NCBI GenBank assembly: GCA_964016885.1
Contig: OZ024743.1
Coordinates: 82,708,001-82,772,000, forward strand
Origin: Eledone cirrhosa
Taxonomy: Eukaryota
Length of the DNA: 64,000 nucleotides
Direction of reading: 5' to 3'
Positions 277 to 45,583 of this stretch are shown piece after piece. Numbering within the stretch: position 1 is the stretch's first letter; each line of letters begins with the position of its first letter. The position numbers and the translations under genes were made by a program. The notes beneath the pieces are model-generated. The model was not told the origin of the DNA. It ran no database searches and saw only the letters and a program-made list of their open reading frames with translations.

Positions 277-459
277 TGTGGTAAGGAACCAGATGGACCA
301 TAACGCACCAGAGTACTCAATACTTAGGGTAGTAGAGTTGGAAATAGGAAAAAGTATGACCCGACAGCAGAGCTCAAGCCGTTTCGACGGCTATTTCTGG
401 ATTAGAAATGGCCGTCGAAACGGCTTGAGCTCTGCCGTCGGGGTCATACTTTTTTCTAT
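277..459 (-). mobile_element. Family A (TA)n-inserted Penelope-like pLTR relic; snap-back palindrome of the hammerhead 3' half
   Basis: Near-perfect palindrome 344-459 (ATAGGAAAAAGTATGACCC...GGGGTCATACTTTTTTCTAT) containing GAAACGGC-TTGAGCTCT-GCCGTC-GGGG. Both ends lie in (TA)n. Same family at 829, 5763, 25491, 35096, 35638, 45385, 54557 and 63757. Confidence 0.75.
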
Positions 460-828
460 ATATATATATATATATATATATATATATATATATATATATA
501 TATATGTACAAAGTTATGGTATCATAACATATATAATATGTATGATGATTAGGTTTCTCAGTAGAAAAGCTCAATGGACGTTTGTCCAGTGCATCAATAC
601 TCCAAATTAAAAGATATATAGAAGAGTAATATACCGTTAGGGAAACATAAAGCATACAATATTTAAGAAAGAGTACACAGTTTAAGGTGGAAAACTTAAA
701 GTATGGACTTTCTCCTAAATATGTTTTTTATGTGTACAAAATACTGTATTTTTCTACCCCCCCCCCTCTCTCTCTCTCTCTCTCTCTCTCTCTCTCTCTC
801 TCTCTCTCTCTCTCTCTCTCTCTCACTT

Positions 829-924
829 ACCCCTTGAGAAGCTCGGCTATTCAAATACCAGGATGAAAATTTTCATTTAGACCAGAATTAGCCGTCGAAA
901 CGGCTTGAGCTCAGCCGTCGGGGT
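829..924 (+). ncRNA. Type I hammerhead ribozyme, U3-A8 core variant (complete family A copy)
   Basis: Stem I ACCCC(829-833)/GGGGT(920-924). Core TTGAGAA(834-840). Stem II G..CGGCTA-TTC/GAA-T-TAGCCG..C with internal hairpin ATGAAAATTTTCAT. GAAA 897-900. Stem III CGGCT/AGCCG around palindromic GAGCTC. GTC cleavage triplet 917-919. Confidence 0.75.
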
Positions 925-1194
925 CCTACTCGTTCCTATATATATATATATATATATATATATAATAAGGAGTTGACGGACCCAGCATATTTATCAATGC
1001 CAGGACCGGTTGTATCTCTCTCAGCGTACTCAATAGGTAATGTAGAATACATTCCCAGAGTATACACATAGTTATTCGCTTCAATACAACACACGTAAAA
1101 CGGGTATATATATATATATATATATATATATATATATATATATATATATAGCGAGAGAGAGAGAGAGAGAGAGAGAGTTAGAGTGAGAGAGAAC

Positions 1195-1461
1195 CGGAAC
1201 TAATATCCCAGAGAATTTTCACGATTCCAAGTGAGACCAGCCAAGCTCAAGGATGTTATCCAGCCTTATAGGATGGGGTTTACCCTCGGGTGTCCTGTCG
1301 GTTGGTTTTTGCCCGTAAAATCTGTCCAGTTAGATCAATTAGAGACGGTTACTTCTGACAGGACCTGCTGGATAGCGTGATTGAGGACACCCAACCCCGA
1401 CCTGCTGGATAGCGTGCTTGAGGACCCCCTCCCCCACCAGAATAAGTGGACGATGAAGAAG
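1195..1461 (+). mobile_element. RTE-type LINE 3' fragment with an internal inversion
   Basis: Matches the 58790-59140 copy by eye. About 1223-1329 is reverse-complemented; 1325-1461 is forward and ends in AATAAGTGGACGATGAAGAAG. Confidence 0.65.
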
Positions 1462-1753
1462 ATTTTCTAACGACTCTGTCAATCCATCACCCCTATTTCT
1501 TTCGGAAATTTCTGAACCTAATTGTCTTTCATCTAGATGTTTGGCAGAAACTCTTTCAAGTGTGTTGAAGAAAGCTTCACATGCAACTCATATACTGATA
1601 TCGTCGAATAATTACCCGTATGAATATTTAATTATTTTATACAATACTTAGTTTGAACAATGAACAAGATGTAGAATGGTGGACAAATTTATCTATATAT
1701 ATTATACATACTCACCTTCTTCATTCTATCAAGCTGAAACATGCTACCGGGAC

Positions 1754-1860
1754 GAGGCGTGTGGCCTAGTGGTTAATGTGTTTGGCTCACGATCATAACT
1801 TCTTGAGCAAGGGGCTTGATTTAACGTTGCTTTTCCTGATAGGACTGAGCACCTTATCTT
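1754..1860 (+). mobile_element. tRNA-derived SINE 5' fragment
   Basis: GAGGCGTGTGGCCTAGTGGTTA A-box-like start, followed by CTTGAGCAAG as in the 29634 family. Confidence 0.55.
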
Positions 1861-43055: not shown

Positions 43056-43693
43056 ACTCACACACAGTTTTATGAATGACATTTATTGTTGACTCTTTTC
43101 CTGAATTAATGTGACTATATATGTATGTAAGCTAGTATGTACGTGTGTATAGGTATGTATGTGTATATGTTTATGCAAGCTAGAGTCTATATGGTCTATA
43201 TATGCATGTAAGCTAGTGTATGTGTGAGTCTCTATTGCATGCTTCTGTGAGTGAGTCTGTAGGTTTGACATAGCGGTTCGACAAAAATATATCGATAAAG
43301 TGTCAAATTTGAAATATAAGTCCTGAGGTCGATACGATCGATAAAAATCACATATTGAATTGGCAGTATCGGTAGAGGGTTGGACGCCGTGCTTTGATGC
43401 ATAGAGTTACGGCCCTTGCCATTCTGAGTTCAAATCCCGCCTAGGTTAACTTTGCCTTTCAACCTTACGGGATCGATAAAATAAAGTACCAGTAATGCAC
43501 TGGGATAATTGCTGGCCTTGTGCCAAAAGTAGAAACAATCATTATATATACATGCATATACTCATACATATATACATATATCCATTCACATACATACACA
43601 CACATATACATATACCCATTCACGCACACATACATATACCCATTCATATACATACACACATATATACGTACATATTTATATGTATTCATACAC

Positions 43694-43884
43694 ATCATCA
43701 TCATCATCATCATCATTTACGTCCGCTTTTCCCTGCTTGCAAGGGTGGGACAGGAACTGATTCTGGCTTGATTTCTACAGCTGGATGCCCTTCCTAACAC
43801 CAACCTCATTTACAGTGAGTGCTGGGTGCTTTTTTGCCGTGGCACCTCCACAACCACTTTGCAGTGGAATGATAGGGACCCCAG
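43694..43884 (-). mobile_element. SINE family 2, 3' half
   Basis: (CAT)n followed by the reverse complement of 29785-29955. Confidence 0.9.
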
Positions 43885-44548
43885 TCATACATACATATAC
43901 ATATAGCCATACACACACATATATCCATTCATACATACTTACGTACACAATAGAAGACAGAACTTATTTCTTGCACGCTATATACATATATACACATTAA
44001 GACCCCAGGTCAACCCCCACCCCTTCTTCTTCCTCTTCTGGTGCTCAGAGTGAAAGATATCAGCTTTATTGTGAGGGTGGGGATGGGGATGGTGGTGTGA
44101 TAAGGCTGCTAATGGTGGTGGTGAGAGGGTGAGATAGGTAGTGGTGGTAGGGTGTGGGTGAGATGGTTAGTGGTGGTGGTGGTGGTGTGAGGAGGGATAT
44201 GACTGATGGGTTTGCGGACACAACACTGCTGTTGCCTAGCAACCACCAACGTGACCTCCCCCCCCCCTAATACTACACAGACACACAGACAAACACACGT
44301 GTGTGATCTCACACAATGTCCACCAGCAACCACAGACACACACACACGTATATATATATGTAGCTCTACACCTATACATATGTATAGCTCTACACCTCAA
44401 CACAGAAGTGAACCTAAACATCGAGTGCTCACCCGGGTGAACCTGCAGTAACTGCAATATATATATATATATATATATATATATATATATATATATATAT
44501 ATATATATATATATAGAGAGAGAGAGAGAGAGAGAGAGAGAGAGAGAT

Positions 44549-44681
44549 TAGAACTGTTTCATTCTCCCGAATGAAACAGTTCTAGTCCTGTAAAAGCCAT
44601 TTCTATATTAAATATTTATGCTCTGCTTTGTATTGAGTACCTTACTTACTGTGGTTACCTCCGATTGAACCCGGGATAAAC
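44549..44681 (+). mobile_element. Family B pLTR relic with snap-back at stem II
   Basis: TAGAACTGTTTCATTC-TCCC-GAATGAAACAGTTCTA palindrome, then GTCCTGTA..TATTGAGTACCTTACTTAC..AACCCGGGATAAAC(TA)n. Confidence 0.7.
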
Positions 44682-45384
44682 ATATATATATATATATATA
44701 TATATATATATATAGTTCATGTATATATATATATATATATATGTGTGTATGTATACATACTCGGTCTATTTTTATGTTTAAATAAATTTTTCTGTCAGAA
44801 ATTTACATTTCCGTTTTTGTTGTTGTTTAACCCCAGGTCAGCTGTTCCAGTCATGACCATCCTGTAGTTCTCTACACCATTGTTAATCTAGGACTACATT
44901 ATTGTCTGGATCTCAACCATTTCATGGTAGTATGAGATTTGGCTACCATTTCTAGCAAGTCAAGTGTCTTCTGTTGACACATATCTGTGTTTACTTAGCA
45001 ATTACATCGACAAGATACCTCTTCATCTAACAATGTCCATAATGGTGAAACATGTGCCGAGTTATCTCCCTTCGCTGCTGGTGAGAAACTAACCAGAGTT
45101 ACTCAAGTTATTTTTTACACTGTATTTAATCCTACTTTAATCTTTTACATGTTGCCAGCATTAGACGTGCTTTCACATTTAACTATATACACTGATACAT
45201 ACACCTTAGTTTGACCCTGTCTTTAATAATCCTCTTATAGCTATTGGTATACTTTTGGTATACTAGGCACACATTCAAATGCACTCTCCTGCTCTCTCTC
45301 TCTGAATATATATATATATATATATATATATATATATATATATATATATATATATATATATATATATGTGTGTGTGTATATGTA

Positions 45385-45583
45385 TAACAAAGGAAGTGTA
45401 GTAAGGAACCAGGTGGACCATAACGCACCAGAGTACTCGATACTTTGAGTAGTAGAGTGGGTAATAGGAAAAGAGTTAGAACCCTGACGGAAGAGCTCAA
45501 GCCGTTTCGACAGCTATTTCTGGACCTAGAAATAGCTGTCGAAACGGCTTGAATTCTGCCGTCGGGGTTCTGTCTATTTTCAT
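45385..45583 (-). mobile_element. Family A element with snap-back palindrome
   Basis: Tail at 45385-45465; palindrome centred on GACAGCTATTTCT-GGACCT-AGAAATAGCTGTC. Confidence 0.8.

Follow-up and report, generated by a model that had tools for sequence, protein, structure and literature searches.

The window analysed here, meaning the whole stretch of 64,000 nt, covers positions 82708001-82772000 of Eledone cirrhosa contig OZ024743.1, inside a 3.0-Gb assembly. An earlier note on this DNA had placed five palindromes in it, and all five are present; additional family A pieces were found by a self-search of the window sequence. The features are as follows.

277..459, no strand: family A palindrome within (TA)n, comprising an antisense tail (277-343) and arm (344-401), a junction and a sense no-tail arm (404-459)
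830..939, + strand: family A copy with a complete hammerhead-like motif, a solo arm with native upstream sequence
5763..5896, no strand: divergent family A palindrome; an insertion of 10 nt of tail-border sequence has rearranged its left arm
11988..12202, no strand: family B inverted insertion with its axis at 12131-12135, upstream of the catalytic strand, and a tail on the left side
25487..25663, no strand: family A no-tail arm fused to a tail-bearing partner that ends short of the ribozyme core
35098..35286, no strand: family A palindrome with tail 35098-35174 and arms 35175-35229 and 35232-35286
35635..35773, no strand: family A tail-only piece head to head with a no-tail arm, non-overlapping, in the classical twin-priming shape
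44549..44681, no strand: family B palindrome (44549-44584) whose centre is the native 4-nt loop of stem II, the tail continuing from the right arm
45383..45585, no strand: older family A palindrome with a left-side tail (45383-45463)
54557..54632, + strand: family A tail-only stub between (TA)n
63752..63837, - strand: family A tail-only stub that extends between the tail end and the second start site

The palindromes are preserved to different degrees. The arms are perfect over 55 bp, around a 2-nt centre, at 35175-35286, and over 16 bp, around a 4-nt loop, at 44549-44584; the copy at 344-459 has 4 mismatches and 2 gaps across ~59 columns, and that at 45464-45585 has 10 mismatches in 61 between its arms. 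The earlier note had reported that arms match within a copy and differ between copies, which pointed to local formation. This part stands, but the coordinates it gave leave out a tail on one arm: the tail-bearing arm extends by ~77 nt, at 35098-35174 and likewise at 277-343, at 45383-45463 and on the right side of 44549. The flanks of the palindromes are (TA)n, in which a target-site duplication is not readable.

Family A is the leader of an autonomous Penelope-like element (PLE) that carries the U3-A8 variant of the hammerhead, a core described for PLEs (PMC4209133, in part). The native layout, read from 30 loci of 1,075 genomic matches to a longer-arm motif, runs in the order stem I, UUGANAA core, stem II 5' arm, 33-nt insert, 3' arm, GAAA, stem III and GUC. 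By its core nucleotides and three stems this is a type I hammerhead layout, for which self-cleavage is only predicted. In the solo copy at 830..939, stem I lies at 830-833, the U3-A8 core at 834-840 and the stem II 5' arm at 844-852, overlapped by a TATA-like box at 848-855; the inferred +1 is 879, and GAAA (897-900), GUC (917-919) and the no-tail end (939) follow. In a fold computation the window copy at 826-928 forms a three-way junction, with a z score of only -1.18. A search of the window against Rfam returned no hammerhead among the best 150 of 256 matches listed; the matches listed were only of microsatellite-driven miRNA type. The canonical CUGANGA core has 46 matches in family A, and the 30 examined turned out to be junction fillers or flanks that match by chance; such matches are spurious, since the real family A core is U3-A8.

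Upstream of the native hammerhead motif lies the end of an open reading frame (ORF) with RT-like and GIY-YIG motifs. Natural pieces of this ORF contain what we take to be RT-like motifs, a Cys-rich linker and a GIY-YIG segment with CCHH (VIY...AYIG, then C/C/H/H). Pfam matched the GIY-YIG domain weakly (E 0.069) and did not match an RT domain, and a PDB search with the RT piece gave nothing significant. The Cys linker only suggests a Neptune- or Nematis-like affiliation. Tandem copies read hammerhead, tail and then ORF start, the last of these ~210 nt after +1 at the loci that include it, and the extra segment of ~77 nt on one arm is therefore the PLE tail. The same hammerhead motif also occurs at ORF 3' ends, in the partial-tandem arrangement of pLTRs. 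The parent element thus has the features of EN+ PLEs, namely a single ORF with PLE-type RT and C-terminal GIY-YIG, a hammerhead pLTR before the ORF and an inverted 5'-truncated copy with an optional tail. That the palindromes are hammerhead-derived PLE parts formed locally at insertion, as the earlier note proposed, is borne out.

These arrangements are abundant. Searches with exact 15-bp inner arms recovered at least 14,066 family A palindromes genome-wide, 12,477 loci with a gap of <=30 nt and 1,589 with a gap of 31-61 nt, and the 24-nt family A core has 52,348 matches; both counts are lower bounds. Family B comprises 78 loci with a 4-nt centre as against 1,553 palindromes recovered by a slightly longer pattern. 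Forty evenly spaced 10-kb stretches yielded only 7 family A clusters, too few for counts, and the locus samples described below are consecutive loci, mostly from contig C1. As these were picked by exact motifs, they favour young copies. Among the first 100 family A core matches on contig C1, 58 lie in palindromes, 18 have a shorter inverted partner, 18 have native upstream sequence and 6 are solo.

The two arms of a locus proved to be sisters, as had been predicted. In the first 50 palindromes of contig C1 the mean arm distance is 1.58 within a locus versus 4.76 between loci, and none of 10,000 permutations gave a value as low. Both arms share their subfamily type at 44 of 49 one-tail loci (chance ~23%), 2 being discordant (L160 and L213) and 3 ambiguous. 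On average 1.5 mismatches in 37 nt separate the arms. A second regularity concerns the tail: exactly one is present at 49/50 consecutive loci, two at 1/50 and none at 0/50. The unpaired centre is shorter than 3 nt in 27/50 family A palindromes, and 9 of these have no unpaired centre at all.

One ancestral palindromic unit, MITE- or SINE-like and amplified whole, might be suspected from near-identical copies of 35098..35286, since whole 191-bp copies with 97-100% identity are found on many chromosomes. A unit of that kind would show a uniform centre and separate lineages for its two sides. Instead, 42/50 junctions are distinct and vary among otherwise identical copies, and there is no left-arm or right-arm lineage: distances are 4.73 between tail-bearing arms, 4.60 between no-tail arms and 4.66 across the two kinds. 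Fold-back during assembly or library preparation would not give point differences between arms or a one-sided tail. Reads of three other samples cover the centres, at 33-52 per run at 35231 and 89-169 at 402, which is weak evidence because the reads come from many copies and spanning of both arms is not established. Whole-unit amplification and artefact together are hardly tenable. In RAD-seq data thousands of reads end at 35228/35233, probably a restriction site.

The earlier note explained the palindromes by a nascent cDNA that folds back on hammerhead stem II and self-primes second-strand synthesis. The family A axis does fall within the stem II region, and many of the 78 family B loci with a 4-nt centre keep the native loop, the window copy at 44549 included. 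The predicted sharp peak of inversion axes is found, but not at the stem II loop: the family A axis sits at the 3' end of the 33-nt insert and not at its apex. Loss of the 5' catalytic strand, with only the ribozyme 3' half retained, was confirmed for family A, which lacks the 5' arm and the loop of the native stem II; in family B it does not hold for most arms, as 27/30 reach past stem II and keep the catalytic strand. Fold-back on stem II necessarily leaves the native loop in place between the two arms, yet the corresponding family A product has 0 matches genome-wide against at least 14,066 palindromes, so the model is unsupported there. The loop half of that search pattern matches 22/30 native loci, which served as a control, and none of 50 long-gap palindromes listed contains the native family A loop. 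A native hairpin loop between the arms is thus absent in family A and the minority case in family B.

Polarity bears on any fold-back of a single strand, because such an event fixes which arm has the unpaired centre; if the tail-bearing cDNA folds, it is the tail arm. Family B, with its short stem II and 4-nt loop, is the best case for snap-back. In the first 50 of its 78 loci with a 4-nt centre, the native loop belongs to the tail arm in 14 and to the no-tail arm in 14; the others have a non-native loop (11), no scored tail (8), two tails (2) or a symmetric loop (1). In family A the tail arm is longer by >=2 nt in 19 loci and the no-tail arm in 14, and the two lie within 1 nt in 16. With polarity balanced in this way, single-strand fold-back is unsupported. 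Later spacer inversion could blur polarity. Partner length tells in the same direction. At the 18 of 100 core matches with a shorter partner, the partner ends before the core, and no-tail arms account for 14 of them; these 14 count against fold-back, since such an arm cannot have been copied from so short a tail-bearing partner. Fold-back on stem II is already largely refuted and retains scarcely any credibility. The part played by stem II is at most that of a 3-nt microhomology, at a few percent of the family B junctions. The long inverted copies also count against the ribozyme helix as the priming hairpin behind inverted pLTRs, as had been suggested: their axes lie as far as ~2 kb from the ribozyme.

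Two other forms of self-priming deserve consideration. In the first, a single cDNA would snap back at its run-off end, away from stem II, after non-templated additions, and recombination or a template switch between the arms would later flip the central spacer. Arm concordance fits, the 19 junctions with the longer tail arm agree, and an extra C occurs in both arms at 6/50 loci versus ~1.6 expected. Flips would nevertheless be needed in ~40% of young copies while arm mismatches (mean 1.5 in 37 nt) stay in place, the 14 no-tail arms with a too-short partner cannot arise in this way, cDNAs begun at the inner site should give tail-less pairs, of which 0/50 were found, and 27/50 centres are shorter than 3 nt. 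Run-off snap-back is accordingly regarded as unlikely. In the second, priming would occur on an antisense template, as proposed for the head-to-head PLE palindromes of Adineta vaga (PMC3846280, in part), a model that would account for intron retention. It predicts one polarity, whereas both are equally present here, and it offers no reason for a stop at the sense TATA/initiator position or for the one-tail rule; we judge it very improbable.

What fixes the axis appears to be the promoter. The arms stop inside stem II in family A and upstream of the whole core in family B, and a TATA-like box lies ~30 nt upstream of the stop in both families; the stop thus tracks promoter spacing and not the ribozyme. 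In family A 78/82 non-native arms end between +7 and -4 of the A in TTAGT/TCAGT, 34/82 of them at +1 or +2, so that arm ends spread across ~11 nt. A TATA-like octamer begins -31/-30/-29 from that A in 69 native contexts, which were collected by a pattern requiring the octamer and so show spacing and not prevalence; the commonest form, TATTTATT, occurs in 51/69 and is weak. In family B, where two of the loci appear to be a single one duplicated, 13/30 arms end on the same base upstream of the catalytic strand; a TATA box stands 29-30 nt before this modal arm end, as read from only 2 native copies. The arm stop is likely to be the transcription start, judging by the spacing of these DNA motifs, and an initiator-type promoter in the pLTR has been reported for Penelope of D. 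virilis (PMC2377424, in part). In a by-eye count of 100 arms listed, the first letter past +1 is A in 69, C in 18, G in 10 and T in 3. A and G beyond +1 both occur natively, and C would fit cap copying; the both-arm excess of C noted above was likewise counted by eye. An extra C can also come from local templated joins. Two other causes of the stop were rejected: a splice acceptor, as the upstream sequence is variable with no constant exon, and ribozyme cleavage at the nearby GUC, past which many arms run.

The palindromes are leader stubs of the PLE, probably produced by twin target-primed reverse transcription with run-off at the RNA 5' end, followed by end-joining. According to this model a Pol II transcript would start ~30 nt after the TATA-like box, in family A inside hammerhead stem II, and family A RNA would therefore lack the catalytic strand. 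The element protein, probably as a dimer, would nick both (TA)n strands, and cDNAs would be primed on opposite strands, one at the tail end (~+140) and one at an inner site (~+60). An outer cDNA that stops before the inner site would leave a non-overlapping inversion such as 35635-35773, and one that displaces the inner cDNA would allow both to reach the RNA 5' end. The cDNA 3' ends would then be joined via 0-4 nt of microhomology or short fillers. Short centres (27/50 below 3 nt, 9 of them without any) are as expected, because identical ends anneal at short self-complementary words. The same reaction begun in the downstream pLTR may give long inverted-pLTR copies.

The products conform to what twin priming leaves behind, namely a pair of inverted fragments that end at separate priming sites and are connected through microhomology or filler. 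Among 100 matches listed are 14 long pairs in head-to-head orientation, with spacings of 26 bp to 3.8 kb and axes away from the ribozyme; the exact tail motif is on one side only in 10, and 4 are not scorable. At locus L259 a short no-tail arm is joined to a copy that runs into the ORF. In vitro work on an anole PLE, PAc Poseidon, points the same way: both target strands are cut and extended, two internal start sites bound the tail, and the protein is a predicted dimer (PMC11167929).

Whether one RNA or two served as template can be weighed from the same data. Dual priming on two separate RNAs of one source locus has been proposed for L1 (PMC2837659, in part) and is otherwise identical to the twin-priming model. 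In its favour, the RNA interval covered is the same for both arms, and 2/49 loci (L160, L213) are discordant, which is a caveat for the use of a single RNA. With free choice of start site, however, about half of the pairs should be tail/tail or none/none, and 1/50 was found, while concordance reaches 44/49 despite several coexisting young subfamilies. Two templates per insertion are accordingly given little weight. One RNA used twice is more likely, because of arm concordance together with the one-tail rule, and the 2 discordant loci suggest that a second template, or conversion, is occasionally involved. In vitro the start site was alike on both strands (PMC11167929), so a strict one-tail rule needs a putative coupling between them.

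Inverted pLTRs, junction palindromes and optional tails are already known in PLEs. [quoted passage not shown] They differ in that the tail is ~77 nt long as against the optional 30-40 bp described there, in that the dominant product is an ORF-less stub of ~190 bp in more than 14,000 copies, and in that the axis is tied to the inferred RNA start; the polarity counts do not fit the antisense self-priming published for inverted PLE copies (PMC3846280, in part). The minimal hammerheads of PLEs, including the U3-A8 form of Cercyon (PMC4209133, in part), share the type I layout, the U3-A8 covariation of family A, the canonical CUGAUGA of family B, and the many solo motifs and opposite-strand pairs. 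Unlike them, family A combines a long stem III with an insert of 33 nt in stem II; as this insert overlaps the putative promoter, an RNA initiated in the pLTR would hold only the ribozyme 3' half.

PAc Poseidon resembles the Eledone element in its two internal RT start sites bounding the tail, in the nicking and extension of both strands and in its AT-rich target; it shows no strand difference in start site, whereas the Eledone genome reveals strict pairing of the two sites (PMC11167929). The closest mechanisms are L1 twin and dual priming, in which opposite-strand cDNAs are joined head to head by microhomology or end-joining (PMC2837659, in part). The two fragments left by L1 twin priming do not overlap, an internal deletion is present and the second site varies (PMC2837659, in part), whereas here each site is fixed and the overlap of the two cDNAs is complete as far as the RNA 5' end.

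The origin of inverted pLTRs and one-sided tails in PLEs has been described as undefined (PMC8557442, in part). In listings of openly accessible papers no twin-priming model for PLEs was found, and such a model may be in print. A word search of PMC11167929 found no link from PAc Poseidon initiation to inverted pLTRs, and a repeat-annotation paper on an octopus has 0 occurrences of 'hammerhead' or 'palindrom'. We advance a broader proposal, one we would believe and doubt in equal measure: coupled twin priming may be the normal insertion mode of EN+ PLEs. A dimer would use both fixed start sites of one RNA on opposite strands, with displacement of the inner cDNA. Inverted pLTRs, one-sided tails and, from the leader, tens of thousands of palindromes marking the transcription start with base precision would all follow from this one reaction. 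On this proposal the family A promoter would lie inside the ribozyme, and a self-initiated family A RNA could therefore not cleave itself.

The stubs constitute a large natural sample of PLE insertion junctions, which counts against single-strand self-priming and connects the two-site, two-strand activity seen in vitro with the inverted structure of genomic copies. They also make testable predictions: where the start site lies, that each pair has a single tail, and that mixed templates give matched arms. For the genome of E. cirrhosa the outcome is the seeding of more than 14,000 near-perfect palindromes able to form hairpins, which repeat annotators could misfile as MITEs.

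Inverted structures in the window also occur in families other than A and B. One of them, a palindrome at 38056-38388 (333 bp, arms of 159 bp), carries an intact CUGAUGA...GAAA motif in both arms and has its axis ~70 nt upstream of the core; yet another family is represented at 19490-19960 by two inverted copies, each arm of which harbours an intact hammerhead-like motif, at 19605 on the minus strand and at 19835 on the plus strand. A palindrome at 29335-29456, with perfect 61-bp arms and (TA)n at its centre, adjoins a family B-like arm. The imperfect 99-bp hairpin at 54935-55033 belongs to an unrelated repeat, and its right half recurs near 5450-5495.

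Among the 49 one-tail family A palindromes, the two arms differ in subfamily type at the two discordant loci, L160 and L213. In younger family A copies the TATA-like box, originally TATTTATT with its start at -31 relative to the inferred +1, has become TATTTAAA, which starts at -29; some of these copies display an initiator altered from TTAGT to TCAGT.

The tails, PLE segments of ~77 nt on one palindrome arm, share a 10-nt motif between families A and B (35147-35156 and 44631-44640). Located ~20 nt beyond the inner start site, the inferred second RT priming site, this motif is a candidate signal for protein binding. At the loci that contain the ORF start (L252-L270), where the order is hammerhead, tail, ORF, a pyrimidine tract ending in CAG lies directly ahead of the ORF anchor. 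This tract suggests a retained 5' intron that would include the tail, a likeness to Penelope.
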